Source of the DNA: an uncultured virus (IMG/VR IMGVR_UViG_3300033148_004664)
Taxonomy: Duplodnaviria > Heunggongvirae > Uroviricota > Caudoviricetes
Reading direction: 5' to 3' (one strand)
DNA length: 64,000 nt
IMG/VR virus record: IMGVR_UViG_3300033148_004664
The translations under genes were made by a program, and so were the position numbers. How positions within the stretch are numbered: the first letter of the stretch is position 1; every line of letters begins with the position of its first letter. Below, piece after piece: positions 36,896 through 61,039 of this stretch. The notes under the pieces are model-generated. The model saw only the letters and a program-made list of their open reading frames with translations, did no database searches and had not been told where the DNA came from.

Positions 36896-36912
36896 GAATG
36901 GAGAAGAATAAA

Positions 36913-38344: not shown

Positions 38345-38431
38345 GCTGGGGTGGTGAAACTGGTAGACACGCGAGACTTAAAATCTCGTGAGGGTAACCT
38401 CATGCGGGTTCGATTCCCGCCCTCAGCACCA
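38345..38431 (+). tRNA. tRNA-Leu (anticodon UAA)
   Basis: Acceptor stem GCTGGGG/CCTCAGC, anticodon arm CGAGA-CTTAAAA-TCTCG, long variable arm, GGTTCGATTCC T-loop, encoded CCA. Confidence 0.96.
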
Positions 38432-41341: not shown

Positions 41342-41516
41342 AGTTTATTGCTCCTTTTGTTTTTGATTTTTTATTTGATAGTGTAGCAATAAAATATACA
41401 ACAAATATACTCAACTCAAAACAAAAAAAATACGATTTGTTGATTTTTTACGCTGTAAAAAAGTATTTACATAATAAATTTTAGTTTTATATTATATTTG
41501 TAAAAAGGAGAATATC
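41342..41516. promoter_or_regulatory. divergent promoter region (nrdD versus portal block)
   Basis: AT-rich gap between divergent genes; TTTACA(41466)-18 nt-TATTAT(41490) on + strand. Confidence 0.5.
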
Positions 41517-43815: not shown

Positions 43816-45807
43816 GTGTTTAGATATGTAGCTGACAATATCGGTGGGTCATTGATTACTGATAATTTAGAGGAACATTTTAACACATTACGTGAATCAG
43901 ATGCACGTTTTGTTGTTCAAGATGCTGGAAGTTATAAAGGAAAGGTGCATTATGGAACTATGCTCGGCCCCGCTCCTCGCCCTATGATAAAAACAGCGAG
44001 CGTGGATTATAAGAAAACAACACCGCTTATACAAGACCCACGTACATCATTTTTGGCATTACAAGTACCGGAAGACAGAGTAATTTTAAATCAGTTATAC
44101 CGGTACTACGATGCTACGGATCCCATTATACAGAACGCTCATAGACTGCATACGGAATTCCCGCTTGCCAATATGATGCTTGCCGATTGTGGAGATCCAG
44201 CGGTACAAAAACATTTCGAGGAGGTTTGGTACGATAGGATTCAAGGGCCGACTTTGTTGTTAGATATTGGTATTGAATATAATAGATTGGGGAATGTTGT
44301 TCTATTCGGTGCTTGGAATGCTACTGATTTGATGTGGGATAAGTTGGCGTTATTGAATATTGATAATATTAAAATTGAGGATACATGGTTGGCACAGCGA
44401 CCTTTGATTAAATTGATTCCTGATGAGAATTTGAAAAAGATCGTTAATACACAGCGACCGTGGTCTTTGTATAAACAGTTACATCCTGAAATTATCAAAT
44501 ATGTCAGGCTTCATAAGGAAATTCCGCTTGATCCTGCTAATGTATGGCATATAACGTATAATCGTGCACCTTATGAGGTATGGGGCGATCCTCCAGTAAA
44601 ATCCTTACTGAAATTACTATTTTATGAAACGAAGTTAATGGACGCTCAAATAGCAATAGCGATGCGTCATATCGTGCCTATTACGCTGGTTAGGGTTGGA
44701 AGCGAGAAAGCGGGCTGGTTGCCTGATGAATCAGAACTTGCCGACATACAGGAGTTATTGGCGGCACGCGAGCTTGATCCGAATATGTCTATAATTTATC
44801 ATTACGGATTAAACATTGATTATATAGGTGCAACTGGCAAAGTATTACCTGTTCAGCAAGAGCTTACTCGTATTGATGAATTAAAATTAATGGGATTAGG
44901 TATCAGCAAAGCATTTCTTGGAGGTGAAGGCGGACCGACATACAGTAATGCATCAGTAGCTCTTGCTGTTTTAAGACAGCGATACCTTCATATTACTCGT
45001 AAGTTCAGTCAGTTTGTGGAAAAGGGATTATTCCAACCTATTGCTGACGCTTGTGGTTTTTACAAAACCGAGAAAACTGTTGTCGGTGCTGCCGGAGCAC
45101 GTCGCGTAACATATGGTGATATAAGTAAAGAAGCAAATGAATTAAGAAAACAATTCAAGGAATCTTCTATTAGAGATTTTAAAGATAACCAAGAATTCAA
45201 AGAGTTTTTGATAGCAAGAGCTGTTGAACGATTGAAAAAGGCAGCACGAGAGAATCGTCAATACGTTTTTCCGAAATTGGATTGGAATTTGATCACGTTA
45301 GCGGGAGATATTGATTGGCGTAGATGGGTTTCGGAATTCAACAGTAAATTCCAGACCGAGAACGGCTTGCCTCTTGTTAGTGAATCTACACTGTATAGAT
45401 TGTTACAGCTTGACGAGATGTCGGAACGCAAGAATGTTATACGTGAAGCTCGTGAGCGTAAGATCCGGCTTGAGATGCTTCGCCGTGAAGGTATTCCTGT
45501 TCAAACTCAGAATCAAGCCGGTTTAGGTGGTGAATTGCCTTTCATGGGGGGCGGAGGTGGTGGATTTGAATTGCCTCCAATAGGGGGCGAAGAAGGCGGT
45601 CCGACTATGGAAGAACCGTTGGGAACACCTGGTATGATGGGAGAGGAATTACCGACTGGAGGGGGTTTAGGTGAAGTTGGTTTACCTGAATCACCAGCTT
45701 CGCAGGATTCTGAGCACATTACGAAGACCGCCTCAAAAGATCCTGTATTAGATATACTTGAGCAGGAGATAGCAACGGACTTGCAAAAAGAAATAAAAGG
45801 AGATTAA
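43816..45807 (+). CDS. probable portal protein
   Basis: DPIIQNA..HTEFP, GNVVLF, WGDP.V, LMGLGIS..FLGG..TYSNASV, Gly/Pro/Glu-rich tail typical of large-phage portals. Confidence 0.7.
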   Translation: MFRYVADNIGGSLITDNLEEHFNTLRESDARFVVQDAGSYKGKVHYGTMLGPAPRPMIKTASVDYKKTTPLIQDPRTSFLALQVPEDRVILNQLYRYYDATDPIIQNAHRLHTEFPLANMMLADCGDPAVQKHFEEVWYDRIQGPTLLLDIGIEYNRLGNVVLFGAWNATDLMWDKLALLNIDNIKIEDTWLAQRPLIKLIPDENLKKIVNTQRPWSLYKQLHPEIIKYVRLHKEIPLDPANVWHITYNRAPYEVWGDPPVKSLLKLLFYETKLMDAQIAIAMRHIVPITLVRVGSEKAGWLPDESELADIQELLAARELDPNMSIIYHYGLNIDYIGATGKVLPVQQELTRIDELKLMGLGISKAFLGGEGGPTYSNASVALAVLRQRYLHITRKFSQFVEKGLFQPIADACGFYKTEKTVVGAAGARRVTYGDISKEANELRKQFKESSIRDFKDNQEFKEFLIARAVERLKKAARENRQYVFPKLDWNLITLAGDIDWRRWVSEFNSKFQTENGLPLVSESTLYRLLQLDEMSERKNVIREARERKIRLEMLRREGIPVQTQNQAGLGGELPFMGGGGGGFELPPIGGEEGGPTMEEPLGTPGMMGEELPTGGGLGEVGLPESPASQDSEHITKTASKDPVLDILEQEIATDLQKEIKGD

Positions 45808-45810: not shown

Positions 45811-46260
45811 ATGAGTAAAATTAATGAATTTAATAATCAAACTTTACCCGATAATGAAGAAGAATTAAGACATTTATTTATGTGCGATAAATTAATTTTT
45901 AATGGCGACCTTAATTTTTCTGATTTATTTTCATTAAAAAATAGATCAATAATTTATTCGCCGATTAATTTAATCGTTAATGGAAATCTTGATGTGAGTT
46001 GGTGTAAGTTTTTAAGATCTCCTCAAAAATTAATTGTTAATGGTTCGGTTAATTTATCGTTTTCGGATTTTGTAATTCCGAGCGGAAGTATAATTACAGA
46101 AGATGTTATAGCTTATGGAGTTACAAATATTAATGAGATTAATATCGGCGGTAATATTTATGGTATTAATGAAACACGTCGTTGGTTTAATGATCCTGAA
46201 ATTCTTCGAGATGTTTATCTTGGCAATGCAAAAATTAATATTAATATTTGTTATGTGTAA
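45811..46260 (+). CDS. short beta-solenoid/LRR-like repeat protein
   Basis: LIFNGDLNFS / LIVNGNLDVS / LIVNGSVNLS repeats. Confidence 0.6.
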   Translation: MSKINEFNNQTLPDNEEELRHLFMCDKLIFNGDLNFSDLFSLKNRSIIYSPINLIVNGNLDVSWCKFLRSPQKLIVNGSVNLSFSDFVIPSGSIITEDVIAYGVTNINEINIGGNIYGINETRRWFNDPEILRDVYLGNAKININICYV

Positions 46261-46279
46261 TTAAAAGGGGATTAAATTA

Positions 46280-47137
46280 ATGTTAAAGTTATCAAGAAGA
46301 GAAGAGGATTTTGATTCGTTAAATATGCTTAAGGGCAGACCTTTTCAAGGTGCTCCAGTATTAGTTCAAAGTATTCTTCGCGACTACAAAATTTACGATA
46401 AATTATGTTTACGTAATTTTTGCTTATCCGATGAGGGAATGAGAATAGATAGGGATAATCCTAATTGGACTGAAGTTTTAGATTTAATAGTTTTTGCAAT
46501 AGAAGAGGGAATTATTACTCTCAAGGAATATCTAAACGAATATGGCGATGAAAAGAAATTTTTAATATGTTTATTGCGAAGATACAGTGATGCCGAGATT
46601 AGAGCTTTAACAAAAAATTATCCTGAATTTCGTGATAAGTATTACTATATACTTAAACCATTACATACAGTGATTCGGTGTTTGAGTAGTAAAGAACCCG
46701 CTACTTTACTTTTGGACGATAATTATTCTGTCGGAGATCTTGTTTGTGAAGTTATACAGAATGGTTATGCGAATGTAAGAGATCTGTTTGATATAAAAAG
46801 AGATGGAAACTATTTTATATATTTTTTAGAATCTATGTATAATGATAGTGAAAAGAACCATACTTGTTTAGCCGATAAAGCAGAAGAAGAAGGAATTTTT
46901 GAAGAGCTTGAAAATGACAAGATAAATTTGTTATTGCGGTGTTGTAAAGATGATAATTATGAACAAGCTAAATTGTTAATAGAATCTTTTTTCATGTATT
47001 CTGTTGAAGATTTGGAGGAAGTATATAAGATATGTTTATATTACGGGATTAGAGGAAAGGCGGCACAATATATTGAAGAGAAATTAGGATCGCGTGCTAT
47101 AGATGTACAATATGAACTTGGTTTATTGGATTATTGA
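46280..47137 (+). CDS. leader-tagged protein 1 (family A)
   Basis: Starts MLKLSRREEDFDSLN. Confidence 0.75.
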   Translation: MLKLSRREEDFDSLNMLKGRPFQGAPVLVQSILRDYKIYDKLCLRNFCLSDEGMRIDRDNPNWTEVLDLIVFAIEEGIITLKEYLNEYGDEKKFLICLLRRYSDAEIRALTKNYPEFRDKYYYILKPLHTVIRCLSSKEPATLLLDDNYSVGDLVCEVIQNGYANVRDLFDIKRDGNYFIYFLESMYNDSEKNHTCLADKAEEEGIFEELENDKINLLLRCCKDDNYEQAKLLIESFFMYSVEDLEEVYKICLYYGIRGKAAQYIEEKLGSRAIDVQYELGLLDY

Positions 47138-47154
47138 CACAAAAGGTTTTTGCT

Positions 47155-48072
47155 ATGTTAAAGTTATCAAGAAGAGAAGAAGATTTTGACTCATTAAATC
47201 AATATAATCAATTTTATGGTAAAACGGAAATAGGTAAGATATTAAAAAAGTATAGTATCTTTAGTGAGCCGGGATTGAGATCGTTTTGTTTGAATGAGCT
47301 TGGAGGAACGGTTCGTGATAAATTTCTTAGTATTGAGGAATTATGTCTTATAGTTTATGCTATTGAAATCGGGACTATAACATTAGAAGAATATATTGAT
47401 ACTTATGAAGGAGATGAAGATTTTTTAAATAAAAAATTTATGGATTATTATGAACTTTATAAGGATGTTATAAATGATATAATAAATAAAAAAACTGATA
47501 TAACCGATGCTGTTTTTAGTGTTTTTCCTAAACGTTTAGTAAAAGCATTTGATCTTTATGACATATCTCTTGAAAAAGAAGAGATCGTTGATTTTTGTTA
47601 TGATATTCTTTATAGTTATCCAGAGACTTATATAGATGATTCTTATACATACGCGGAATTTATTGTTGATTGTTTAAAATACGGATTAATATCTGTTCGG
47701 GATCTTGTTGTTGGTGCATTTGATCCTCTTCTTTTATTACAGTTTATAGATGATCTTTCTGAAGATTCTTACGAGTGGGGATTCATATATAGGAGAATGT
47801 GGGATGAAGGGGTGTTTGATTATCTTAAGAAACATAGGATGGCATTATTAAAAAAGGCAATTGAGTCTCGTAGTACTTATGATGTTAAGACTCTTTTAGA
47901 GAACTTGAAATACACCGATGAAGAGCTGCGAGGTATTTATTTAGACCTTCTTTTGGAGAAGCATTTTCAAAAGAAGAGTGATATTATAAATATGATTGAA
48001 TCTGAATTAAGCCCTGCAATTGCGGAAGAAGTATGGGAAGAAATTTACGGATCTTATTACGATGAAGATTAA
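47155..48072 (+). CDS. leader-tagged protein 2 (family A)
   Basis: Starts MLKLSRREEDFDSLNQYNQF at ATG 47155. Confidence 0.75.
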   Translation: MLKLSRREEDFDSLNQYNQFYGKTEIGKILKKYSIFSEPGLRSFCLNELGGTVRDKFLSIEELCLIVYAIEIGTITLEEYIDTYEGDEDFLNKKFMDYYELYKDVINDIINKKTDITDAVFSVFPKRLVKAFDLYDISLEKEEIVDFCYDILYSYPETYIDDSYTYAEFIVDCLKYGLISVRDLVVGAFDPLLLLQFIDDLSEDSYEWGFIYRRMWDEGVFDYLKKHRMALLKKAIESRSTYDVKTLLENLKYTDEELRGIYLDLLLEKHFQKKSDIINMIESELSPAIAEEVWEEIYGSYYDED

Positions 48073-48085
48073 GGAGTTTATTGTT

Positions 48086-48922
48086 ATGGCGAGATTTGTT
48101 GTTACAGCGAGAAGGGAAGAGGATTTTAATTTCAGGTTTGAGCGGGATTTCATGGATATTATAGATTTATTATGGGAAATTCTATATGAAGATGACCCAA
48201 CCGAATTAAAAAGATTTTTAGAATATTACAAATATGAGTTACCAGGTTCCGTTCTATACCAAGCGTTAGGTTGGGCGACTAATAACGTAAGTGATATAAA
48301 TACCGTATATTCTTTAATAGATACGTTAAAAGAATTAGATATGCAATTATACTCTCTCAATTTTTATAGTTTATTGTTTTATAAACAAAATGTTCCTGAA
48401 TTTGATCTTCAATATATAAAAGACATGGTATCACAATTTAGTATAAACGATGTGTTTAAAATTGCTTTGAGTAATAAATCTATTAGAATAATAAAACTAT
48501 TATTCAAAGAGAAATTTTTACGACATACAAAGAAGAATCATGATGCTGCTCTGTCTACATTTGCAGACAATAAATCTTTGTTGTTGCGATTAGTGATGGA
48601 TGCAAATATTGTTCCCATAGGAGAATGCGGAGAGTTTCTTGTTAATATTTACAAAAAATATAAAGATCCTGAATTTATATCATTTTTAATACATAGAGGA
48701 AGAAGATTAGAAATATCCCCTGAATATCTATACGAGTTCGTAGATTTATGCGTCCCCTGTAAACTGTTAACTAACTTGATTTTTATCTCTGGAATCAGTG
48801 ATTCACAGTTACAAAGTTTATTGGAATACAACAGCGAAAGTACTTATGAACGATCGTCGGAATGTATTGATGAAATCGATAATTGTATCCAGCGAATACT
48901 AACAGAGTACGAAGGTGAGTAG
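48086..48922 (+). CDS. leader-tagged protein 3 (variant leader, unrelated body)
   Basis: AAGGAG then MARFVVTARREEDFNF. Confidence 0.7.
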   Translation: MARFVVTARREEDFNFRFERDFMDIIDLLWEILYEDDPTELKRFLEYYKYELPGSVLYQALGWATNNVSDINTVYSLIDTLKELDMQLYSLNFYSLLFYKQNVPEFDLQYIKDMVSQFSINDVFKIALSNKSIRIIKLLFKEKFLRHTKKNHDAALSTFADNKSLLLRLVMDANIVPIGECGEFLVNIYKKYKDPEFISFLIHRGRRLEISPEYLYEFVDLCVPCKLLTNLIFISGISDSQLQSLLEYNSESTYERSSECIDEIDNCIQRILTEYEGE

Positions 48923-48927
48923 TTACT

Positions 48928-49788
48928 ATGTTAAAATTATCAAGAAGAGAAGAGGATTTTGATTCGTTGAATCAGTATAATCAGTTTTTAGATAAAACGA
49001 TTATAGGTAAAATACTTAAAAAATATAATATTTATAGTGATCAGGGGTTGAGATATTTTTGTTTGAATGAGCTTGGAGGGGGAGACAGTGTTTTTAAATT
49101 TCGACTTCGTCTTGAAGAATTATGTCTTGTAGTTTATGCTATTAAAACTGGAGTTATAACATTAAAAGAGTATGTTGATACATATAATGGAGATGAAGAT
49201 TTTTTCAATTACAGGTTTCTTAATCAATATAAAATTCATAAAAACTTTATAGACGAAGTGATGAAGAATGTATACGAAGGCAAGGAACTTAACGAACTAT
49301 TTATTTCTCTTCCTTCTTCTGCCGAATACGATTATAGGTTAGAAAAAATACCAATTGTATTAAAACAATATAATATACCGTTCAGACGAAGTGCAGTTGC
49401 TGAATTTTGCAGAAAATTAATATATGAAAACAATCGACCGAATGAATTTATATATAAAACTCTTCTTACTAATGCAGAATTTATCGTTTTGTGTATAAGA
49501 GGCGGTGTAATAGAACCTACGGATTTGGTTCCTGATCAACCTTTTGATTCTATATATTTTATCAGTTTTGTTGATAAGGCTTGGGGTTCATTCGAAGATG
49601 ATGAAGAATCGCTATCAATACAAAATTTTTTAAACCATGTCGGAGAAATTACTGGAATATACGACATGTTTTTTACGCATAAAGATGATATTTTTAAGGA
49701 AATTATTGATAAGAACGACATAAAAACAATACATTTACTTTTATATTCAGACATCATAAATCATGAGGACAAATTGAAGTTATTATGA
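48928..49788 (+). CDS. leader-tagged protein 4 (family A)
   Basis: MLKLSRREEDFDSLNQYNQF; N-terminal ~90 aa close to 47155. Confidence 0.75.
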   Translation: MLKLSRREEDFDSLNQYNQFLDKTIIGKILKKYNIYSDQGLRYFCLNELGGGDSVFKFRLRLEELCLVVYAIKTGVITLKEYVDTYNGDEDFFNYRFLNQYKIHKNFIDEVMKNVYEGKELNELFISLPSSAEYDYRLEKIPIVLKQYNIPFRRSAVAEFCRKLIYENNRPNEFIYKTLLTNAEFIVLCIRGGVIEPTDLVPDQPFDSIYFISFVDKAWGSFEDDEESLSIQNFLNHVGEITGIYDMFFTHKDDIFKEIIDKNDIKTIHLLLYSDIINHEDKLKLL

Positions 49789-49851
49789 TAAGAAAACTTT
49801 GTTAACTTACAAGAAAAAATATAAAGTTTAAATAAAAAAGGAGATTTTTCC

Positions 49852-50811
49852 GTGTTAAAGTTATCAAGAAAAGAAGAGGATTTTGATCATTTATCTATGT
49901 TTCGCTGGTTTTTCAATGAGACAGAGATAGGTAAACTATTAAAAAAATGGGATATATTTAACGAGGAAGAATTGAGGGCATTATGTTTGGAGGAGGAATT
50001 GAGTGGTAGGTATCGGTATGAACCTCTATCGTTGGAAGGAGCTTTTCTTGTGGCTTATTCTATTGAGTCGGGTATTATAACTTTTGATGAGTATGTTGAT
50101 TCTTACCAAGGGTCTTTATCCGATTTTTGTAACTTTTTCTTGCTGCAGTTAAGAGGAAAGGAATTGGATTACATAAGGTCTTTAGTAGAAAGAGATCCTG
50201 AATTAAGAGGAGAGCCTTGTATAGAAGTGTTTTTAGTTTTACCGGAAAGCTATTTAGTAGTTATTTCTTGTTATGGTAGAGAATTGAGCAAGGAAGATAT
50301 TACTTCATTCTGTTATGATTCAATATATGGAGGTACTGATCCTTTTGAAAATTACTCTTATATTCTTGGTGGTTCATCTCGTCTTACGAATGCGGAGATT
50401 ATAATATTCTTTATAGAGTCCGGTTTAGTAAATCCTAAAGATTTAGTACCGGAACCGAGGTTCTTATTAGATACTCTTGGGTTTTTAGATTATATCAGGG
50501 GATTAATAGGTCATCCTACATTTTATGAGTATTTTAATAAACTGGGACATGAATACGGGATATATAAATTGATTAAAGATAACAAGGAAGAAATAATACA
50601 GCATATTATTGAATCGGGTTCTCAAGTAGATGCTGAATTATTACTTGAGTCCGGTCTTTTGACTGAAGAAGATATAGAATATTTTTACAAGCAAATTTTG
50701 ATGAATGAGAAAAGTCTACCAATATTATCAATGGTTGTTGGAAGGTACTTGGATGCAGATATAATAGAGGAAACAAGTAATGAGGTTTTTGGCTTGGATG
50801 AAAATGAATAA
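49852..50811 (+). CDS. leader-tagged protein 5 (family A)
   Basis: GTG start, MLKLSRKEEDFDHL; TEIGKLLKK, LTNAEII. Confidence 0.75.
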   Translation: MLKLSRKEEDFDHLSMFRWFFNETEIGKLLKKWDIFNEEELRALCLEEELSGRYRYEPLSLEGAFLVAYSIESGIITFDEYVDSYQGSLSDFCNFFLLQLRGKELDYIRSLVERDPELRGEPCIEVFLVLPESYLVVISCYGRELSKEDITSFCYDSIYGGTDPFENYSYILGGSSRLTNAEIIIFFIESGLVNPKDLVPEPRFLLDTLGFLDYIRGLIGHPTFYEYFNKLGHEYGIYKLIKDNKEEIIQHIIESGSQVDAELLLESGLLTEEDIEYFYKQILMNEKSLPILSMVVGRYLDADIIEETSNEVFGLDENE

Positions 50812-50831
50812 GAGGAGGATTATTTTAAACA

Positions 50832-51524
50832 ATGTTACGACTCAGTAGAAGAGAAGAGGATTTTGATCATTTATATAAGAAAAGGGAAGATCTTACCTTT
50901 CGTTTTGTTGCTTCCGATACTCTATTAGAGATAATGGAAGACTATGATTTGACTACGAAAGAAGATGTACTTTCTTTTTGCTATAATGGTTTTTATAATC
51001 TTTTAAAGAGTGACGATTTAAACAAGGATATAGATGTCTCGGTTGCTATATTAGAATGCATGGATATAAATTTAATTTCTATCGATACTCTTTTCAGTCA
51101 TAAAGAAGGTCATTCTAACAGCGAATTCATAATGTATCTCGGGCGGTTTATGTATATAGTAGATTCTTATTTGGATACATCAAAAACGACATATATTTTA
51201 AATGAATTTCAAGAATCAACAACTTTCTACGATATGTTGTCTTTTGATTTGTTGTTAGAGATATACAATAAATACGGAACTGCAGAGGATATTTATATAA
51301 TATTACATTATTTTGGAATATATTCTCAGGAATTACTTTATATCTATACTGAAGTAAGAGGATTAATTGAAGAAGGAAATAGTAAATATTACGGGATGTT
51401 GGAATCAATAGTAAAGTGTATAGAAGAGCGGGGACTTGTATCTGAAAAACGTAAAATAGATAGACTTGTAGAGCAATTAGAGGAAAAAGACGAAGGAGAA
51501 AACACTGATGTTGAAACTCAGTAG
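50832..51524 (+). CDS. leader-tagged protein 6
   Basis: MLRLSRREEDFDHL; RBS AGGAGG. Confidence 0.75.
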   Translation: MLRLSRREEDFDHLYKKREDLTFRFVASDTLLEIMEDYDLTTKEDVLSFCYNGFYNLLKSDDLNKDIDVSVAILECMDINLISIDTLFSHKEGHSNSEFIMYLGRFMYIVDSYLDTSKTTYILNEFQESTTFYDMLSFDLLLEIYNKYGTAEDIYIILHYFGIYSQELLYIYTEVRGLIEEGNSKYYGMLESIVKCIEERGLVSEKRKIDRLVEQLEEKDEGENTDVETQ

Positions 51525-52497
51525 AAGAGAAGAGGATTTTGAAAGTTTACACTTCAAGAGGAATCAAGCATACTTCAGTCAATTACTCTCTTCTGTTCGA
51601 CATTGTGATCATGAACATCTTAGTACATTATTACGTAACTATATCAAAGAATCATTATCGTCGGACGAAATAGCACAGTTATTAGGCGAAGTATCATGTC
51701 CGAGAACACTCGCAGTGTTACTTGATTATATCAATATGATAGACCTTAAATATAATATACCGTATTTTCCCCAATATGTACTTTTGGATTATATAAAAAA
51801 CAAGTATTACAATCCGGATACACTTCAACTTGTTTTAATGGGGTTCAGACGGGGGATAAAAAGTGATGTATCAAATATCTTATCTTCTCTACTGACGGCC
51901 GCGGTAAACAACAAGGATTACTTTGCATTGGATGCAATAGTAGACGAGTTCGATTTAGAGGAAAATTCTTACTTTTTCCTCTCTGCTTTAAATGAAGCGG
52001 GACAAAACAACGATTTCAAGATTCTCAAATATATCATAGAAAAATTCGATGTAGATGTTAGATCCTTATCGGAAGAATACTACCATGTGTTTTTACCTAT
52101 TACATCTGCTATAAGAAACGAAAATATAGAAATGGTTAATTATCTTCTTGATAGAGGAGTTGTTGTAGATAGAGATCTCTATGTCGGATTGTTTGATTTG
52201 GCTGCTTTAAAAAATGATTATTCTATAATTGATACTCTTTATAAGAGAGATTTGACTAAATTAAATATTTTATTATACGAAGCGGCTATATCCAACCATT
52301 TCGAGATAATAGATTACTTATTAGATAAATATAACATAGACTTAAGCACTCCCGAATTCCAAAACACTTCCGAATTCCAAGAGAATCAAGACATAGAAGC
52401 GGTTTTTAATATAGCTGTATCGGAAGGAAAAGAACGTACCGTAAAAAATATTTTAGAACATGGATATACACCCAAAAGAAACTATAAAAAACGCTGA
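51508..52497 (+). CDS. leader-tagged protein 7, ankyrin-repeat-like
   Basis: MLKLSRREEDFESL; PITSAIRNENIEMVNYLLDRG, AAISNHFEIIDYLL. Confidence 0.75.
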   Translation: MLKLSRREEDFESLHFKRNQAYFSQLLSSVRHCDHEHLSTLLRNYIKESLSSDEIAQLLGEVSCPRTLAVLLDYINMIDLKYNIPYFPQYVLLDYIKNKYYNPDTLQLVLMGFRRGIKSDVSNILSSLLTAAVNNKDYFALDAIVDEFDLEENSYFFLSALNEAGQNNDFKILKYIIEKFDVDVRSLSEEYYHVFLPITSAIRNENIEMVNYLLDRGVVVDRDLYVGLFDLAALKNDYSIIDTLYKRDLTKLNILLYEAAISNHFEIIDYLLDKYNIDLSTPEFQNTSEFQENQDIEAVFNIAVSEGKERTVKNILEHGYTPKRNYKKR

Positions 52498-52535
52498 ATC
52501 AAAAAATAGATATACAATAATACCGGAGGCATTCA

Positions 52536-52844
52536 ATGGAAAATAAAAAAGGAAGAGTAAAATCCGACCCGAATGACTTATTGATTCAAGGAGTACGCGA
52601 GAATAATATAAAACTCGTCAAAAAAGCATTACTCAACGGAGCGGATGTCAATATCTATAACGACCTTCCACTCAGATTAGCTTTAATGTATAATAACTAC
52701 GAATTGACTAAACTACTTCTTGAATACGGTGCAAACCCTCACGTAGGAAATGATATATTATATACACTATATGAACCTCCGTTTCAGGAAAAAGTAAACC
52801 CTGAAAACGATAGAATTTACAGGTTACTTCTTAAATATAGATGA
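52536..52844 (+). CDS. ankyrin repeat protein
   Basis: LVKKALLNGADVN, PLRLALMYNNYELTKLLLEYGANPH. Confidence 0.85.
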   Translation: MENKKGRVKSDPNDLLIQGVRENNIKLVKKALLNGADVNIYNDLPLRLALMYNNYELTKLLLEYGANPHVGNDILYTLYEPPFQEKVNPENDRIYRLLLKYR

Positions 52845-52897
52845 TTAACGCCGGCAATTCCAGCCAATTACTTACTGAATAACCTGTAAAACAAACC

Positions 52898-52934
52898 TTA
52901 ATAGTTTATTATATATAATATAATAAACTATTAA
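52898..52934. repeat. perfect 17-bp inverted repeat with 3-nt spacer
   Basis: TTAATAGTTTATTATAT-ATA-ATATAATAAACTATTAA. Confidence 0.9.
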
Positions 52935-52958
52935 TTAAACAGAAGGTGGTATTGATAT

Positions 52959-53513
52959 ATGAATACTGTAAAAAATATTGTATTAAAACAATCGGTAGAT
53001 ATTAAAAAATCTATATTTATGCTCTTATTAACTGGTCTATCAGTAACTAACGTAGCAAAAGAACTGAATATAGACGCGGATACAGTAGAGGATGTTATTA
53101 ATGAAGTTAAAGTAGATCCTAACAGTTTTCAAGAATTTGTATCTACATACTCAAGAGAATCAATATACGATACATCAGACAAGAAAGCACCTATATTCGT
53201 ATCCGCTACTATTTATCATGCTACCGAACACCAAACCGATTCGACACCGATGATAACGGCGGACAACACGGATTTAAATAACATAGATATAAACAAGTAC
53301 AAAATAATCGCCGTATCGAGAGATCTGTTATATATAAACGGCGGTCCTTTGAAATTCGGAGATACTGTATTAGTTACGGGAGCCGGACCTATGGATGGTA
53401 TATGGCATGTACATGATGTTATGAACGCACGATATACCAACCATATAGATTTTCTTGTTGATTCTTCTGTTAAAAGCGGTAGATGGGAGAATGTTGAATT
53501 AACGATTTTATGA
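52959..53513 (+). CDS. 3D-domain (MltA/RlpA-like) protein with N-terminal HTH-like segment
   Basis: ATIY..QTDSTPMITA, IIAVSRDL, FGDTV, VHDVMNARY..IDF; N-terminal GLSVTNVAKELNIDADTV. Confidence 0.8.
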   Translation: MNTVKNIVLKQSVDIKKSIFMLLLTGLSVTNVAKELNIDADTVEDVINEVKVDPNSFQEFVSTYSRESIYDTSDKKAPIFVSATIYHATEHQTDSTPMITADNTDLNNIDINKYKIIAVSRDLLYINGGPLKFGDTVLVTGAGPMDGIWHVHDVMNARYTNHIDFLVDSSVKSGRWENVELTIL

Positions 53514-53526
53514 GGTGGGTATAAAC

Positions 53527-54324
53527 ATGTTGCGATTATCAAGAAGAGAAGAAGATTTCGATTCGTTAAGGAATAGAGCTTTATATACCCTTGATGAATT
53601 CTTGGTTTTCTTGGCGGAGAAATATAAAGAATTACCGAATCATGTCTATAAGGATATGGTATTAGGAAATTTAATAAAGGAATATCCCCTTACTCAATCT
53701 CTTGATGAAATTGTAGACAGAATTCATGCGTTGGGTTACAATTTCCTTATCCCCGCATTCTTAAGAGCTTTTAATGCAAATAAAGAACAATATTTTAAAA
53801 TTATGTTAGAAAGCCTTATGCAACCTAATGCTCCTATGGATGATTATGATAATTATTTCAGGGATATTCATTGGGTGGATTTTTTGAAATATTTGGAAAA
53901 TTATATAGAAACAAGTGAGTCCTTTACGTTCGATAAGGCTTGTATATTATTAGAGAATCTCATTAGAAGTAATTATTATACACAACCGATAAACGCTGTA
54001 TTGAAACGGTTCAAATCGGATTTTGAAAACGAACCGAGGAAATTATATGAAATAGCATTACTTCATGATCACGGATATATGTTGCTCAATCCTATAGGGG
54101 AAGTTTTTGGGGATGAGATGTTTGATAAGTTTTTATCTTTTGCATCTGAAGAAACATCTTATAAATATGAAGGACTTCTTTTCTCCAGCATTCAATGGAT
54201 ATTTGATTATTGTAATTATGAACCAAGTAACGAGTTTTTAGAAAAAATCATAGAGAATTGTAAGAGTAGGTCGTTGTTGGCATTACTGAGATTCTATAAG
54301 AAAAAACCTGATGGAGAAGATTAA
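53527..54324 (+). CDS. leader-tagged protein 8 (unrelated body)
   Basis: MLRLSRREEDFDSL at ATG 53527. Confidence 0.75.
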   Translation: MLRLSRREEDFDSLRNRALYTLDEFLVFLAEKYKELPNHVYKDMVLGNLIKEYPLTQSLDEIVDRIHALGYNFLIPAFLRAFNANKEQYFKIMLESLMQPNAPMDDYDNYFRDIHWVDFLKYLENYIETSESFTFDKACILLENLIRSNYYTQPINAVLKRFKSDFENEPRKLYEIALLHDHGYMLLNPIGEVFGDEMFDKFLSFASEETSYKYEGLLFSSIQWIFDYCNYEPSNEFLEKIIENCKSRSLLALLRFYKKKPDGED

Positions 54325-55520
54325 TGGAAGAATTTGATTACAGTTCTCATCCTAATATTGTTTATCCATCTTTAAGTTGGATTAATGATGCATGGAATGA
54401 TATAGCAGATAGCGTAATTACAGATAGAACATATATAGAGAGTATTTTAGAACGTTCTTTGCTTAATCTCAAATTCGACGTGTGGAAATTGTTAAGCACA
54501 TTGTACAGTCGGCGATTATACACAGTATTTGATATTATATTAGATTACTTGGATAAGAATGATATAGAGACGAAATTTACTGGTGGTCTTGTTGATTTAT
54601 GGGCTAACGTATGTAAAGATGCCCCGATACAGTTTTTAGAAAGACTGTTAGATATTATTTTTGTGACTGTACCGGCAGGATATAAAGTTATTTTCAAGCA
54701 TATACCGGATCGCGGAGCGGATTTTATACGCGAGTATCTTGGAATGTTGGAAGATTTTAATCAAATACCTAATGAATACTCAGAAAAAATTTGGTTATTC
54801 GATCTTTTGAAACAATATCCTTTTGTTGTTATAGATTTCGTAAAGAAACATAATATTAAGTTGGTATGGAATAAATCTGATATTGTAGATTTAATAGACC
54901 GATTTCAATCGCGTAAAATATCTGTTGAGGAATTCAGTGAGATATTACGTGTTTTAGGAATAAGGACTGAATCTTTTATAGCGGAACTTCGTGCTTTCAT
55001 GAGTTATAATCGATCGCCGGGTGAAGATTTATTGACATATATTGTGTTCAGAAACATTCAGTTTTACGGTCGCCCCCCTTTACCTAATGAATGTGTGACT
55101 CATCAAGACTTAGATAATTTTAAGATTTCTATAGAATCGGGTGATGAGGAAGGAATAAAAGAGTTTTTCAAGAAGATAGAGCCTTTTAATGTAGATGGTC
55201 GTATCTTGGTAAAGGAAATAATACCTCAATTACATGTTGTTTTACGTAAAGATAACGTACACATTTTCAAGCTGTTAATGGATTATATAACGATAGATTC
55301 TTTTTATGCAGAATTTTTGCGTTATGCCGAAGTCATATGTACTTATGATAGTTATAAGATAGGAAAATATTTATTATCTGAGTGGGAAAATTCTTCTTAC
55401 ATAAAAATTAATTTTTGGAACAAAGTAAAATGGGAGGCTTATCGTAATAGGAACTGGAAATTTTTAGATTTAATTCGTAACTATGAAGAGTTTTTGTACG
55501 AAGATTACTATAACACATAA
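54324..55520 (+). CDS. helical repeat protein, family B copy 1
   Basis: MEEFDYSSHPNIVYPSLSWI, identical start to next gene. Confidence 0.75.
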   Translation: MEEFDYSSHPNIVYPSLSWINDAWNDIADSVITDRTYIESILERSLLNLKFDVWKLLSTLYSRRLYTVFDIILDYLDKNDIETKFTGGLVDLWANVCKDAPIQFLERLLDIIFVTVPAGYKVIFKHIPDRGADFIREYLGMLEDFNQIPNEYSEKIWLFDLLKQYPFVVIDFVKKHNIKLVWNKSDIVDLIDRFQSRKISVEEFSEILRVLGIRTESFIAELRAFMSYNRSPGEDLLTYIVFRNIQFYGRPPLPNECVTHQDLDNFKISIESGDEEGIKEFFKKIEPFNVDGRILVKEIIPQLHVVLRKDNVHIFKLLMDYITIDSFYAEFLRYAEVICTYDSYKIGKYLLSEWENSSYIKINFWNKVKWEAYRNRNWKFLDLIRNYEEFLYEDYYNT

Positions 55521-55533
55521 AAGGAATATTGAT

Positions 55534-56730
55534 ATGGAAGAATTTGATTACAGTTCTCATCCTAATATTGTTTATCCATCTTTAAGTTGGATTGCTGATG
55601 TATGGAATGATATAATAGAAGGTCATGGGACTATAGATAGAACATATATAGAGAGTATTTTAGAACGATCTCTGCTTAATCTTTCATTTGATGTATGGGG
55701 ACTGTTAAACTCGTTGTATAGCTATAAATTATATACAGTATTTAATATTATATTAGATTACTTGGATGAGAATGATATAGAGACGAAATTTACTGATGGT
55801 CTTGTGTATTTATGGACTAACGCATGTAAGAATGCACCTATACAGTTTTTGGAGCATTTATTGACTATTGTTTTCGCTACTGTACCAGAAGGATATAAGG
55901 TTGTTTACAGACATTTGCCGGTTCGTGGGGAAGATTTTGTACGTGAATATCTTGAGATGATGGGAGATTTTTATATCATACCGAAAAAGGGTTCCGAAGA
56001 GAATATTTGGTTGATTATTTTACTGAAACAATATCCGTCTATTGTTATAGATTTCATAAAGAAATATAACATCGAGTTATCATATAATAAGTCTGATATT
56101 ATAGATTTAATACAACGAGTTCAATCGCGTAAAACATCTGTTGAGGAATTCAGTGAGATATTACGTGTTTTAGGAATAAGATCTGAAAAGGATATAGCGA
56201 GTATTCGTAGTTACATGAGTCGTTCAATGAATGTGAATGAAGATGTATTAACGGATATAGTATTACATTATATTGAGCATTACGGACGCCCACCTTTACC
56301 GGAAGAATGCATAACTCATCAAGATTTCGACGAATTCACAGAAGCAATCGAAAACGGAGACAAAGATGGGATAAAACGATTTTTTGACAAGTTGAATTAT
56401 TCCAGATATAGAAATACATATACTTTATTGAAATCTATAATACCTCAAGTTGTATTTATTATAAACAAAGATGATGTAGATACTTTTAAAGTATTAATAG
56501 ATTACACGGGTTTAGATAATTTTTATTTGGTTTTTCTTTATATGCCGGAAGTTTTATGTGGTAATTACAAAATAAGTGAGTATCTACTTTCGGAGTGGGA
56601 AAATACTCCGCGTGTCAAATTTGATTTTTGGAAGAGAATATGGCACGTGACTAAACTCAATAAGAACGATGATTATCTTACTTTCCTTTCTGAATATAAA
56701 GAATTGTTTGAGGAAGAAACATTATTATGA
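55534..56730 (+). CDS. helical repeat protein, family B copy 2
   Basis: Colinear paralog of 54324..55520; ATG 55534. Confidence 0.75.
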   Translation: MEEFDYSSHPNIVYPSLSWIADVWNDIIEGHGTIDRTYIESILERSLLNLSFDVWGLLNSLYSYKLYTVFNIILDYLDENDIETKFTDGLVYLWTNACKNAPIQFLEHLLTIVFATVPEGYKVVYRHLPVRGEDFVREYLEMMGDFYIIPKKGSEENIWLIILLKQYPSIVIDFIKKYNIELSYNKSDIIDLIQRVQSRKTSVEEFSEILRVLGIRSEKDIASIRSYMSRSMNVNEDVLTDIVLHYIEHYGRPPLPEECITHQDFDEFTEAIENGDKDGIKRFFDKLNYSRYRNTYTLLKSIIPQVVFIINKDDVDTFKVLIDYTGLDNFYLVFLYMPEVLCGNYKISEYLLSEWENTPRVKFDFWKRIWHVTKLNKNDDYLTFLSEYKELFEEETLL

Positions 56731-56750
56731 ACTGAATAGAGAGGGGAAAC

Positions 56751-57542
56751 ATGAGATTAAAACTAAGCAGACGCGAAGAAGAATTCAATAAAATCATTGA
56801 CCCTTATGTAGCGATGACTTGTGAAGATCTAATGAATTACTTTACAACAGTATGTTCCGAGAGCGATACGGAACGCTTGCGTGATGATCCGTTGGTATTA
56901 AAAGGAATTGATGCGTTGTTAGACAAGTGTCATGATAACATACGGTTTTTATTGACTGAATCTATAAATGATGACGATAATGAAGTATTCTACTTGATAA
57001 TACGCGGGTTAATGGAACGTAGAGATGCTTATTTATTCGATGTCAACTTTTTAGTTTCGCGTGTTTGTGCAAAGAGTGCTTATAAATGTTTCAAAGAGTT
57101 GTTGTCAATATTGGAAGGAGATTTGTCTTTCTTATACGTTACGATCGAATATTATTCAACGGATTGTACATTTATACGAAAATGTACTGATTTGTTGATG
57201 GAACGCGGAGTTCCGTTAAGAGCGCGTATATTTGAGGCTTCTAATGGAGCGTGGTTTTTACAGCAGTTCTTGATAAAGTTGATTAATTGCTATGAGAGCG
57301 TTACACCAATAATTTCGTTGTTAAGAAGTAGTGAGGGTATTTCGTTACCGCTGAATTTCTTTTCGTTGCTTGTTATGGAAAGTGATGTTATAAAAGATGA
57401 AACAAGGATTACAGTCGATGATTTCAATTCGTTATTATCGTACTACAAAGGTTCTTATGATGAATTATACAGAAGTTTAGGGACTTATTTGAAAGAGAAC
57501 GGGAGATCTGATTTAATAGCCGTTCTACAAGAAAGGATGTGA
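56751..57542 (+). CDS. leader-tagged protein 9 (unrelated body)
   Basis: MRLKLSRREEEFNK. Confidence 0.75.
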   Translation: MRLKLSRREEEFNKIIDPYVAMTCEDLMNYFTTVCSESDTERLRDDPLVLKGIDALLDKCHDNIRFLLTESINDDDNEVFYLIIRGLMERRDAYLFDVNFLVSRVCAKSAYKCFKELLSILEGDLSFLYVTIEYYSTDCTFIRKCTDLLMERGVPLRARIFEASNGAWFLQQFLIKLINCYESVTPIISLLRSSEGISLPLNFFSLLVMESDVIKDETRITVDDFNSLLSYYKGSYDELYRSLGTYLKENGRSDLIAVLQERM

Positions 57543-57549
57543 AAATAGG

Positions 57550-58299
57550 ATGTTAGATTTACGTTTTGCATACAATTTACCGCAAGAGCTTTCTGATTAT
57601 AGTGGAGAAGATTTAATGACACCCGAAGAGATAGCAAATCATCCATTGGGCAAAGTTTTATTTGATAGAGATAAAATCACTCCTGAATTTATTGAAAACA
57701 AGAAAGTAACTGAGAGATGGATATTCGCTTTTGCGTTCGATGTTTTTAAAAAATTTGATGGTTGGAGTATAGTAAATAGTACTTTTTTAGGAGAAGGTTT
57801 TGATACTGTAGAATTACCAGAAGTAACAGATATTCCTGTCAAAGAACATATATATGTACCAGGTATAGTAGATGGGTTTATACAACGTAGTGTTTATTTG
57901 AGAAACAATGACCCCTGTTACATAGGATTTTTGTATGGTGCGTTAGTACGAAGAGAGAAAAGGTATAATTTTTCGGATGGGTATAAAGCTATTGTCATGG
58001 ATTTAATCGATAATAATATTCCAGAATTCGGTGATTACTTATTTGATCTTATGGATAAGTATGATAATGTAATAGCGTATGTAATTGATAACGAACCATT
58101 TGTTCCCATTGATTTATTGGAGTATCTTGTACTAAGCTGGTTCGTTCTTAATGATTACCCAGACGAATTTTTCAAAGTCATGAAATTAGACTCACTTAGA
58201 GCTGTGTGTCAAAGATACGCAAAAGACTACCCCGCAGTTTGGGAAGATTTTCGTGAACTTGAGCTTATACGATGGCTTGAGAAATTTGTTTGGAGATAA
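57550..58299 (+). CDS. family C copy 1 (MLDLRFA leader)
   Basis: MLDLRFA..LMTPEEIANHPLGKVLFD..WLEK. Confidence 0.75.
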   Translation: MLDLRFAYNLPQELSDYSGEDLMTPEEIANHPLGKVLFDRDKITPEFIENKKVTERWIFAFAFDVFKKFDGWSIVNSTFLGEGFDTVELPEVTDIPVKEHIYVPGIVDGFIQRSVYLRNNDPCYIGFLYGALVRREKRYNFSDGYKAIVMDLIDNNIPEFGDYLFDLMDKYDNVIAYVIDNEPFVPIDLLEYLVLSWFVLNDYPDEFFKVMKLDSLRAVCQRYAKDYPAVWEDFRELELIRWLEKFVWR

Positions 58300-58333
58300 T
58301 AGAGGTTATATTGAGAAAGGATGTGAAAATAGA

Positions 58334-59107
58334 ATGTTAGATTTACGTTTTGCACAAGAAGAAGATATTGATCAAGTTAATACTTCAGAAGAAGAAACCA
58401 GCGGGCAGGAACAAACAGAAACGAATTTAATGACTCCTGAGGAAATAGCTAATCATCCATTAGGTAAAGTTTTATTTGATGTTAATAAACTTACTCCTGA
58501 GTTTATTGAGGTTAATAATATTAATGAGAATTGGTTGATCTCACAAGCAAAGGAAATTTTATTATCACAATGGTATTATAATATCAATGATGCCATTAAT
58601 GGTGACGTTTTTGTTACTCTGCCTCAAATTGTTGTTGGTTCGCCATTTAAACAAGAGATTGATGTTGTTGCTTTACTTGATGGCTTAATTCAATATAAGC
58701 ATAAACCGCGTGCTTTGGGGATGGACGCACTTGCTTTTTTCTATGCTGCTGTTGCAATGTACAGAGAACGTTATTCCAACGAAATAACGAGGTATCTTCA
58801 TGACTTAATTGTGAGTAATATTGATACTTTTACGTCTTACTTGTTTGGTTTTATGTTGAAGAATAACGGTCAGTTTGCTCGTTTAGTAGAGAAAGCCAAA
58901 TGGATACCCCACGAATTTTATGTGAAATTATTTCAACAAGTGTTAGGTCTTGCAAAAAGAAACCCACAAGGATTTTACAATCTTATAACTTCCAGAGGAT
59001 TTATTTTATTGATTAAGCGGTGTCGTAAAGTAGATCCTGAGCTTTATGAAAATATGCGTAAATTTGAATTCATGAAATGGCTTGAGAAAAATGTTTTGAA
59101 AGAATAA
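58334..59107 (+). CDS. family C copy 2 (MLDLRFA leader)
   Basis: MLDLRFAQEED..LMTPEEIANHPLGKVLFD..WLEK; ATG 58334. Confidence 0.75.
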   Translation: MLDLRFAQEEDIDQVNTSEEETSGQEQTETNLMTPEEIANHPLGKVLFDVNKLTPEFIEVNNINENWLISQAKEILLSQWYYNINDAINGDVFVTLPQIVVGSPFKQEIDVVALLDGLIQYKHKPRALGMDALAFFYAAVAMYRERYSNEITRYLHDLIVSNIDTFTSYLFGFMLKNNGQFARLVEKAKWIPHEFYVKLFQQVLGLAKRNPQGFYNLITSRGFILLIKRCRKVDPELYENMRKFEFMKWLEKNVLKE

Positions 59108-59110: not shown

Positions 59111-61039
59111 ATGTTTGGAAATAATAAGATGGAAAGAGAAGAGTTCAATAAAGATAAAAGTTTTTATTACACGGAAAGCGATAGTATAAGATTGGCATTA
59201 GAGGATATATTCAACGATCCTTCTGTCGATAGGGATTATGCTCTTAAATTCATCCGAGGAGCAATACGATCCCCCGATATTTCTGTTTGGTATTTATTGA
59301 GTAAACTAATTGAAGATTATCCTCACAGGACTGATCTGTTTCATATAGTTGTACAAGAAGCTTTGGATGAATATTCAGGGGTGGGGCTGACGAAGGAAGA
59401 ATTTTATGAAAAAGCATATTCATGTTGGTTTACATTGATAGGAAGAACGACGACTACTCCAGAACAGCTACGATTATTGGCTGAGTTGATTATGGAAACA
59501 GTCCCTGGTGGGAAAAATATTCTTCTTAATCCTGATAGATTGATAACAGATAGTTTATTAGATGTTTACATGGATATATTAGAGACTTTCATTGTAATCC
59601 CTGAGCATATTAATATTAATGAAGCAAGAATTCTGATTGATTTTTTGAGAGTAGATTTCAAAAAGGGTGTAGAGTTCATTATGAAACACAATATACATTT
59701 CATGATGAACTCAGAAGTGTTTTCTACAATATTTTTCGCTTTACGTGTTGATAATGTTGACATAAGGTTGATAAGGGACTTTTTGAATTACGCTGTTATT
59801 ACACAAGAAGATGCTTTGGATTGGGCCGAGCAGTGTAAATGCAACATTTATATTGAAAACATACCGTTATATTTTATGCTTATCCATCTTAGCGAGACCG
59901 GAAAACTCCCTGACGATTCGGAGCTTTTGACTCAAGAAACATTAGAAACTTTTTTACAAGATATTATTCATGGTAGTACGGAAAAAGTAGATAAATTTTT
60001 AAGTGAAATAAATCAATACGATAAACCATTGATAGAGCAAATTATACTAAATCGTTTCTTTAAAGATCCTGACGGCCTGTTTTTCGTATTGGAGAATGAT
60101 GATGTAAAGATATTAGAGACACTTTTTAAAGTTGTAGATATTGATTCGTTTTATGAAAAGTTCAATGAATCCAACTCTTCTCAAGAAATTATTTCTTTTA
60201 TTAAGAATAAATGTTTCAATATTTATAAGTATTTACTTGAGACAAGTGAAGAGACGCATGAGTATAAAAGTTTTTGGGATAACGCTCTTTACTTTTCTAT
60301 TATTTATAAAGAACCTGAAGTATTTGATTTTATCGCAGATTATTACTATCCAAAACAAGAAACATCTACTATTTCGTTTGGACTGAAAACTTTAATTAAT
60401 TATTACTTAGATGTAAATTCTCTTGATATTTTATTCTATTACCTTGATACGATTAAAGAAAAAAGTAAGAAGTTTAGTGATCATTTAGTTAAGACAATAT
60501 CTACTATATCGAAAACGTTCAACGATTTGAGTTGGACGGCGTCTTTCCTTGAAACAGCTATGGATAGATACAATATCTCGTGTTTATCTTTTTATGAACT
60601 GAATGCGTTATTGGTCGAAATAATATGGGATCGTACTGAGGAATCTATAAACCAAGACGAGTTGAAATTGTTCTGGGATAAACGGTGTGAGTTGAAAGAT
60701 TACGATATAGATAGTCTTTTACTTGATTCTTTAATAATTGGTTCAATAGACTTGTTTGATTTCATAGCGAAGAACAGCGATTTTTATAACAGAGATTCAC
60801 GCGAGTATTTTATAAAAACTCTCTTGGCTGAAATTATTAGGTCTCCTTCTTACATAAAAGGATTGAAGAGATTTTATGATTCTCCTAAAATACCGAGGGA
60901 TTTAAAAGATGAGATTTTGAGAGTTGTTGTTGAACAAGGACCGAAAAAGAGTATTTACTTGTTACCGAGAGATTATATGCCGTCGGACAAAGATTTGAGA
61001 GAAAAAGTAGAGAATCTTAGACAGCAAGAGGAAATATGA
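59111..61039 (+). CDS. large helical repeat protein, distantly similar to family B
   Basis: GKLPDD..LLTQE..DDV..L..IDSFY..FW parallels GRPPLP..THQD..DDV..DSFY..FW in family B. Confidence 0.7.
   Translation: MFGNNKMEREEFNKDKSFYYTESDSIRLALEDIFNDPSVDRDYALKFIRGAIRSPDISVWYLLSKLIEDYPHRTDLFHIVVQEALDEYSGVGLTKEEFYEKAYSCWFTLIGRTTTTPEQLRLLAELIMETVPGGKNILLNPDRLITDSLLDVYMDILETFIVIPEHININEARILIDFLRVDFKKGVEFIMKHNIHFMMNSEVFSTIFFALRVDNVDIRLIRDFLNYAVITQEDALDWAEQCKCNIYIENIPLYFMLIHLSETGKLPDDSELLTQETLETFLQDIIHGSTEKVDKFLSEINQYDKPLIEQIILNRFFKDPDGLFFVLENDDVKILETLFKVVDIDSFYEKFNESNSSQEIISFIKNKCFNIYKYLLETSEETHEYKSFWDNALYFSIIYKEPEVFDFIADYYYPKQETSTISFGLKTLINYYLDVNSLDILFYYLDTIKEKSKKFSDHLVKTISTISKTFNDLSWTASFLETAMDRYNISCLSFYELNALLVEIIWDRTEESINQDELKLFWDKRCELKDYDIDSLLLDSLIIGSIDLFDFIAKNSDFYNRDSREYFIKTLLAEIIRSPSYIKGLKRFYDSPKIPRDLKDEILRVVVEQGPKKSIYLLPRDYMPSDKDLREKVENLRQQEEI

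Follow-up and report, generated by a model that had tools for sequence, protein, structure and literature searches.

Genes and features of the array

The DNA analyzed in the current study is a 64-kb window (64,000 nucleotides, nt) of IMG/VR record IMGVR_UViG_3300033148_004664, from an uncultured tailed phage of large size. Its proteins are reported on a 135,734-bp contig, of which about 72 kb lie beyond the window. Behind the gene for the portal protein lies a tandem array in which eight predicted proteins begin with the same short peptide and a ninth with part of it. This peptide is called the leader below, and genes are named by the first position of their open reading frame (ORF). An earlier note, made from the letters of this DNA, had pointed to a probable portal gene, which was borne out by a match to phrog_16240; the array starts 473 nt past the portal stop codon, at the second gene after the portal. 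The features are as follows.

43816-45807, plus strand, portal protein, 663 amino acids (aa), phrog_16240 (E 1.3e-48), GTG start, GGGGGG ribosome-binding site
45811-46260, plus strand, 149-aa protein of unknown function without the leader, between portal and array
46280-47137, plus strand, leader gene, family A, 285 aa, leader at 46280-46324
47155-48072, plus strand, leader gene, family A, 305 aa, leader at 47155-47199
48086-48922, plus strand, partial-leader gene, singleton body, 278 aa
48928-49788, plus strand, leader gene, family A, 286 aa, with a near-identical copy (P0002) on another contig
49852-50811, plus strand, leader gene, family A, 319 aa, GTG start
50832-51524, plus strand, leader gene, short family A member, 230 aa, family A body profile E 1.2e-7
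51508-52497, plus strand, leader gene, ankyrin-repeat body, 329 aa, leader encoded within the 3' end of 50832
52536-52844, plus strand, small ankyrin protein without the leader, 102 aa, isoelectric point (pI) 8.8, the sole basic protein of the block
52959-53513, plus strand, 184-aa protein without the leader, phrog_21574, function unknown
53527-54324, plus strand, leader gene, singleton body, 265 aa, model resembling a HEAT/TPR-type alpha-solenoid
54324-55520 and 55531-56730, plus strand, two family B paralogs starting MEEFDY
56751-57542, plus strand, leader gene, singleton body, 263 aa, variant leader
57550-58299 and 58334-59107, plus strand, two family C paralogs starting MLDLRFA
59111-61039 and 61041-62891, plus strand, two long family B members

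The earlier note had ended the array at 57542; families B and C carry the paralog-rich region on to at least 62891. The array proteins other than 52536 are acidic (pI 4.4-5.3), and those with the leader have 230-329 aa, 27-38 kDa, pI 4.4-5.0 and a net charge of -12 to -34. The two family C genes have about 20 nt of upstream DNA and their first seven codons in common (57520-57552, 58304-58336), a likeness that is a DNA-level duplication, unlike that of the leader genes.

Gaps between the genes from 41517 to 62891 were mostly 0-35 nt, with three of 39-115 nt. No strong terminator stood out in this block (nine terminator-like sites against 7.6 expected, which is chance level), and the best promoter-like site ahead of it was sigma-70-like, at 41466-41495. 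The array is presumably co-transcribed with the portal gene. The largest gap within the array (115 nt, before 52959) holds a 33-nt AT-rich palindrome at 52900-52932, which might serve as terminator or promoter, or for recombination.

Occurrence and conservation of the leader

A six-frame scan of the whole window for L[KR]LSR[RK]EE[DE]F gave eight matches, all on the plus strand and all at ORF starts (46280, 47155, 48928, 49852 with its GTG start, 50832, 51508, 53527 and 56751). The leader of 56751 starts MRLKLS and is a variant (MRLKLSRREEEF). The shorter pattern R[RK]EE[DE]F added one ORF, 48086 (MARFVVTARREEDF; MARFVVTA-RREEDF), and the six frames held no leader beyond these eight full and one partial copies, so that the nine-gene claim of the earlier note stood. 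A degenerate 33-nt back-translation of the leader matched six times in the window and not once in any of 100 dinucleotide-preserving shuffles. With a hidden Markov model (HMM) of the leader, the partial copy of 48086 scored 9.6 bits, and the fraction of the null at or above this score was 0.0005.

The leader consensus is M-L-[KR]-L-S-R-[RK]-E-E-[DE]-F-[DEN]-x-[LI], with a length of 11-15 residues. It varies least at R6-[RK]7 and the adjoining E8-E9, the one portion that is retained in 48086, where another N-terminus precedes it; S-R-R (twin arginine after Ser) is invariant or nearly so. No hydrophobic stretch follows the leader, where the next residues are E-E-D-F-D-S-L-N, in agreement with the note, which had seen no hydrophobic core.

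Codon variation, also described in the note, was found for Ser (TCA, AGT, AGC), Leu (TTA, TTG, CTC, CTA), Arg (AGA, CGC), Glu (GAA, GAG) and Phe (TTT, TTC). Pooled over 28 pairs, leader codons 2-11 gave a proportion of synonymous differences (pS) of 0.63, which is near saturation, and a proportion of nonsynonymous differences (pN) of 0.12, which is inflated by the TCA/AGT/AGC serine codons. Because the residues are kept while pS is nearly saturated, it is the peptide that is conserved and not the DNA. In all 55 pairs formed by 11 proteins (eight from the window, three from other contigs), 9-15 of the 15 leader residues were identical, whereas the bodies of the same pairs were 19-47% identical over aligned positions, for most pairs the level of unrelated sequences. 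Some leader pairs have identical tracts about 26 nt long. A Shine-Dalgarno-like GGAG or GAGG precedes every leader-gene start, and the upstream DNA is otherwise not conserved.

Other N-termini of the region scored low with the leader HMM. The portal N-terminus (LEEHFNTL, residues 18-25) gave -1.8 bits (null fraction 0.095), 59111 gave -2.4 bits (0.14) and 58334 gave -2.6 bits (0.15), none of them significant. The MEEFDY start of family B may be a shortened leader, although it was not significant by profile; 59111 carries REEFNK at the same distance from Met1 as 56751. Looser patterns, such as EE.F[DN].[LIV] and an acidic-aromatic core, were post hoc; the core was present in 15 of 19 ORFs from 45811 onward and in none of the 52 upstream, for a pattern defined after the data had been seen. 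The portal protein ends in a 103-residue Gly/Glu/Pro-rich tail (45496-45807, residues 561-663), probably disordered, which follows an L-R-R-E motif; the pattern L.?R[RK]E was not significant in this tail (three observed, 1.29 expected).

Families and folds of the bodies

BLASTP without the first 20 residues grouped 46280, 47155, 48928 and 49852 as family A; a second cluster, family B, took in 54324, 55531, 59111 and 61041, and a third, family C, consisted of 57550 and 58334. A body-only HMM of family A, run against the 71-protein database, added 50832 (E 1.2e-7), which corrects the note's grouping of this gene. In the same database body-only HMMs gave no other cross-group match below 1e-3, the nearest values being 0.0029 (family B against 62888) and 0.019 (the ankyrin pair against 48086), and hhalign between body groups reached a probability of 10.5% at best. 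As no similarity between groups was detected by either method, the leader spans five body groups, namely family A (five genes), 48086, 51508, 53527 and 56751.

Ankyrin repeats scored above the Pfam gathering scores in 51508 (Ank_3 48.8 bits, cut-off 22.3; Ank_2 44.1 bits, cut-off 27.3) and in 52536 (Ank 32.7 bits, cut-off 21.1). Among the other 15 array proteins, scanned to E 10, there was no Ank match above the gathering score; 61041 had a sub-threshold Ank_2 match of 23.3 bits. An ESM Atlas model of 53527, with a predicted template modelling score (pTM) of 0.72, resembled HEAT/TPR solenoids with template modelling (TM) scores of 0.4-0.55. For family A, the AlphaFold2 model of 47155 was all-alpha, with a predicted local distance difference test (pLDDT) score of 82.9 and pTM 0.73. 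This model had no Foldseek match at E <= 0.001 in PDB or BFVD, and its best VIA Z was 6.0, among generic helical repeats, so that no fold family could be named.

The position of the leader was compared in the two AlphaFold2 models. In 47155, leader residues 1-12 had pLDDT below 50 within a low-confidence helix (residues 6-20), and in 51508 (whole model 79.3) residues 1-4 and 6-8 had pLDDT below 50 at the free start of a helix (residues 5-31). In both, the leader is the least confident part and is unpacked against the fold. With this low confidence the leader does not look like part of the fold in either model. A complex prediction for two copies of 47155, run without controls, scored 0.00 and gave no answer, and it carries no weight for or against binding.

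The note had called several bodies unrelated. This holds insofar as no sequence similarity is detectable, and is too strong insofar as all bodies are acidic and the three that were modelled are all-alpha repeat proteins. For the same reason the five groups may, by their sequences and models, be very old paralogs. Duplication and divergence from one ancestor is as likely as movement of the tag onto unrelated genes.

Distribution and recombination

A leader-region profile searched against 1.84 billion representative proteins gave nine matches at E <= 0.001, namely four window proteins, a 60-residue fragment of 49852, P0010, P0012 and two unrelated repeat proteins. P0010, from a 7,133-bp contig, keeps 14 of 15 leader residues and has a body 47% identical (aligned positions) to 51508. 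Leader-bearing relatives of family A are P0012, from a contig of 3,898 bp, and P0003, which a word-based search brought up. The library is incomplete, several window leader proteins not being among its matches, and absence of the leader elsewhere on the contig is for this reason weakly supported.

Neither the IMG/VR contigs nor the JGI metagenome contigs nor the 185,579 prokaryote genomes contained the leader DNA pattern; this pattern fixes Leu2 as TTR, so that CTN variants would be missed, and the window's own contig evidently lies outside the collections searched. The scan for the leader motif proposed by the note thus succeeded in the window, where every match stood at an ORF start, and among proteins, with three relatives on other contigs, and gave nothing in the three contig collections. 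The leader tag appears, from these searches, to be limited to a narrow lineage. Queries with the portal against viral contigs and with P0010 against metagenome contigs gave no match, the DNA from the portal to 46280 had no blastn match among phages, and a word search with residues 1-40 of 51508 returned the query alone, which is uninformative.

Parts of the locus were found in three DNA runs labelled as hydrothermal-vent metagenomes, from three studies, covering 21, 19 and 11 of 30 bins, mostly at >= 95% identity; one of the three may come from the source sample itself. The P0012 contig is labelled by NCBI as a Candidatus Odinarchaeia metagenome-assembled genome (MAG); the binning of a 3.9-kb contig is weak evidence. 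An archaeon might be the host, or else an anaerobe of the vents.

In one of these runs (X1), position 49866 is fused to 50847 on a contig of 777 nt and depth 4.82, whose shorter arm measures 203 letters. The reading frame passes without a shift from codon Ser5 of 49852 to codon Arg6 of 50832, and precisely one cassette is missing. This leader-to-leader deletion of 49852 indicates that array content differs between strains. The leader coding stretch is therefore also a site of cassette loss and presumably of gain; given the high synonymous divergence, such recombination does not explain the conservation of the peptide. A joint from 46249 to 52904 in run X3 was set aside, having 21 letters on one side and a palindromic end.

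Neighboring genes and the rest of the window

Upstream of the portal lies a gene that may be relevant to processing.

42731-43369, plus strand, predicted caspase-fold (CHAT / Peptidase_C25-like) protein, 212 aa, two genes upstream of the portal; candidate processing protease

Against its ESM Atlas model (pTM 0.93), clusters named CHAT and Peptidase_C25 aligned with TM scores of 0.68-0.75, high enough for a name to be given, and higher scores (TM 0.84-0.88) came from clusters without a name, most of them viral. The protein has H71-G72 and A103-C104, each behind a hydrophobic stretch, which we take to be the dyad pattern of clan CD (His-Gly and Ala-Cys, each after a hydrophobic strand). Clan CD enzymes often cleave after Arg or Lys. 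No match to this protein was found in Pfam, PHROGs, PADLOC, PDB sequences or phage tblastn. Literature searches found clan CD nowhere together with phage head maturation, and turned up nothing on head maturation for caspase-like or CHAT proteases and phage capsids. The RR|EE junction as a clan CD cleavage site is a lead and not a result.

Among 50,697 phage records, the nearest portal was that of Bacillus phage G (gp14), with 32.6% identity over 72% of the query. When the 71 window ORFs were compared by tblastn with the first 28.8 kb of phage G, the portal was the sole clear match, followed by two weak ones (E 0.002 and 0.099). A query with the phage G capsid gave 2591 matches, of which the best 120 were all 74-100% identical to phage G, and the capsid protein of the window phage was not found among them. 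PADLOC and NCBIfam scans gave nothing useful.

Further genes identified in the window include a DNA polymerase fragment, a UvsX-like recombinase and SbcCD-like nuclease subunits, and the following.

18811-20781, terminase large subunit
about 22.4-37.8 kb, block with glycosyltransferases, radical SAM enzymes, a methyltransferase, an oxidoreductase and a phosphoribosyltransferase
38628-41341, minus strand, NrdG/NrdD pair

An HNH endonuclease-like gene (18120-18821) directly precedes and overlaps the terminase gene. Four paralogs with a common N-terminal motif, 37-54% identical (30120-31013, 32089-32988, 36017-36895 and 36898-37788), are interleaved with the enzymes of the 22.4-37.8 kb block, which together with them could be a DNA- or glycan-modification cluster. 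A tRNA-Leu gene (anticodon TAA) at 38345-38431 on the plus strand adjoins the minus-strand NrdG/NrdD pair.

Possible roles of the leader

The leader is probably a docking peptide of some kind shared by the proteins that carry it. The note's proposal of an address tag is supported in this respect by the selection seen at the peptide level, the five body groups, the low-confidence and apparently exposed state of the leader in two AlphaFold2 bodies, and the three proteins from other contigs. Among specific mechanisms, the best that the genes alone suggest is a head-targeting propeptide of the type of the T4 capsid targeting sequence (CTS), which is put forward tentatively by analogy.

The array would then be a fast-evolving multigene family of acidic helical-repeat proteins with one common exposed N-terminal peptide. 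As an address tag (propeptide), the leader would dock each family member to one partner in the assembling prohead, and the docked proteins would enter the head and reach the host cell along with the DNA. There the variable repeat bodies might bind different targets, e.g. those of defence or take-over. Processing would most likely take place at the invariant basic-acidic junction R6-[RK]7 | E8-E9, with the caspase-fold protein as a possible enzyme, and the conserved 5' coding stretch would double as a recombination handle for gain and loss of cassettes.

Several points weigh against this proposal. The leader lacks the T4 [LI]-x-E and the giant-phage [AGS]-x-E cleavage motifs described in published reports (PMC5694885, PMC9026906); Glu occurs at leader positions 8 and 9, but P3 would be Arg. 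The leader proteins are acidic and of 27-38 kDa, whereas small size and basic character are reported for the internal proteins of T4 (PMC9026906). The 64-kb window yielded no gene for a major capsid protein, a scaffold or a canonical prohead protease, and for this reason no binding partner of the leader can be named. Shared orientation means little because the plus strand carries nearly all window genes, and the promoter-like site at 41466-41495 tells nothing of timing. The caspase-fold call depends on one structural comparison of predicted models and on a dyad pattern, and no sequence profile supports it. The proposal is held at somewhat less than even confidence.

Alternatively, the leader could be a short linear motif that recruits the family members to a common partner outside the virion, the proteins being made in the cell and left unpackaged. 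Such a partner might come from the host, as a hub protein, or be a phage factor for replication or take-over; it might also be a protease or chaperone, for which the leader would be a degron or timing signal. The tag-like evidence of peptide-level conservation and low model confidence fits this too, acidic repeat bodies are of the kind that binds other proteins, and the cleavage motif of head proteins is absent from the leader; tandem arrays with high variability also typify genes for host take-over. The location directly behind the portal, in a compact co-directional block with the caspase-fold protein beside it, argues for the head instead, and the short N-terminal peptides known to be common to many dissimilar phage proteins are, in the reported cases, head-targeting signals (PMC9026906, PMC12373910, PMC9024508). 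A partner outside the virion was judged rather unlikely. Unlikely, too, is that the array is one old paralog family in which the N-terminal helix is simply the slowest-evolving structural part, e.g. a capping helix, with no addressing role. The members are all acidic and of similar size, those modelled are all-alpha repeat proteins, the leader starts helix 1 in both AlphaFold2 models, and family B shows descent with a decaying N-terminus, REEFNK of 59111 standing at the positions of 56751. A structural cap is nevertheless hard to reconcile with a leader that is the lowest-confidence, unpacked part of both models, with the extreme contrast between 60-100% identity over 15 residues and undetectable body similarity, and with 48086, which retains only RREEDF behind a different N-terminus.

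The stretch might also be kept mainly as nucleic acid, whether to assist cassette shuffling as a handle for recombination or gene conversion, or to help initiate translation. The X1 joint, which deletes 49852 exactly between two leaders, and the identical tracts of some leader pairs are consistent with this. At a pS of 0.63, with constant Ser, Leu and Arg residues drawn from different codon families, it is improbable; gene conversion would homogenise codons, and the upstream DNA is unconserved beyond the ribosome-binding site. Least probable of all, and scarcely to be entertained, is an export signal, e.g. one of the twin-arginine translocation (Tat) type, as the nearly invariant twin arginine preceded by Ser might suggest. 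The twin arginine is followed by no hydrophobic h-region, and the proteins are acidic and look soluble; a Tat signal is contradicted by the sequence, in which S-R-R leads into E-E-D-F-D-S-L-N.

A more elaborate version of the head-targeting proposal, which is a long shot as a whole, joins the leader to the caspase-fold protein and the host. The leader would be cut at R-[RK] | E-E by the putative protease of 42731-43369, so that loading and processing of cargo would rely on a cysteine protease of clan CD, where other assembly systems are described as using serine prohead proteases (PMC9026906, PMC5694885). The family B starts (M-E-E-F-D) would mimic the end already cut. The vent samples and the Candidatus Odinarchaeia MAG label of the relative suggest that the cargo, ankyrin- and HEAT-like as it is, could act on eukaryote-like machinery in an archaeal host.

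If the leader is indeed a head-loading tag, this phage lineage would supply a second natural and sequence-distinct capsid-loading signal, along with eight or more existing cargo proteins, acidic binders of ankyrin- or HEAT-like type that form an unusual class. It would bear on the diversification of injected counter-defence proteins and on phage protein delivery outside the T4 group. Even without packaging, a near-frozen 15-residue peptide in front of bodies diverged past recognition marks a functional short motif.

Comparison with known systems

In T4, the first 10 residues of IPIII are reported to suffice for packaging, gp21 cleaves the propeptide on the C-terminal side of Glu, and the internal proteins co-purify with the scaffold gp22 (PMC9026906). 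Ip1-3 are reported to have only the leader in common and each to block a different GmrSD nuclease, and relatives carry at least 10 Ips (PMC12373910). T-even internal-protein cargo is described as injected and as blocking host restriction (PMC9026906, PMC12373910, PMC3012670). The array resembles the T-even CTS proteins (Ip1-3, Alt), as these are described, in that a short N-terminal peptide is the sole common part of dissimilar proteins at variable loci, here as eight full and one partial leaders on five body groups. It differs in the leader sequence, which is another one and has no [LI]-x-E site, in its putative cargo of acidic helical-repeat proteins of 27-38 kDa, set against the small, basic proteins reported for T4, and in its eight to nine tandem genes close behind the portal.

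For SPN3US, gp53 and gp54 are reported to agree in all of their first 15 residues and to have bodies 34% identical, a pattern likened by the authors to the T4 CTS; the head of this phage is said to hold all 20 members of a paralog family (gp138-154 and others) (PMC5694885). Most SPN3US propeptides are given as 111-254 residues long and cut at A-x-E-type sites (PMC10052503). The window phage is likewise large and has tandem paralog arrays, as SPN3US and the phiKZ-like phages do; it shows no sequence relation to them (no PHROG match).

In P1, DarB's N-terminal 30 residues are reported to suffice to send a reporter into the capsid (PMC9024508). The leader would be comparable as an N-terminal capsid-targeting stretch, in P1 that of a phage described as injecting anti-restriction proteins; no consensus is reported to run through the Dar proteins, whereas one consensus runs across many genes here. 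Polymorphic prophage toxins fused to MuF are described as combining a constant N-terminal head-associated module with variable C-terminal parts near portal and terminase genes (PMC3482391). With MuF the constant part is an entire domain, against a peptide of 11-15 residues in the array, and no MuF was found here. The cargo-loading peptides of encapsulins differ in being usually C-terminal and in belonging to bacterial compartments; in these a short conserved terminal peptide docks diverse cargo inside a shell of the HK97 fold.

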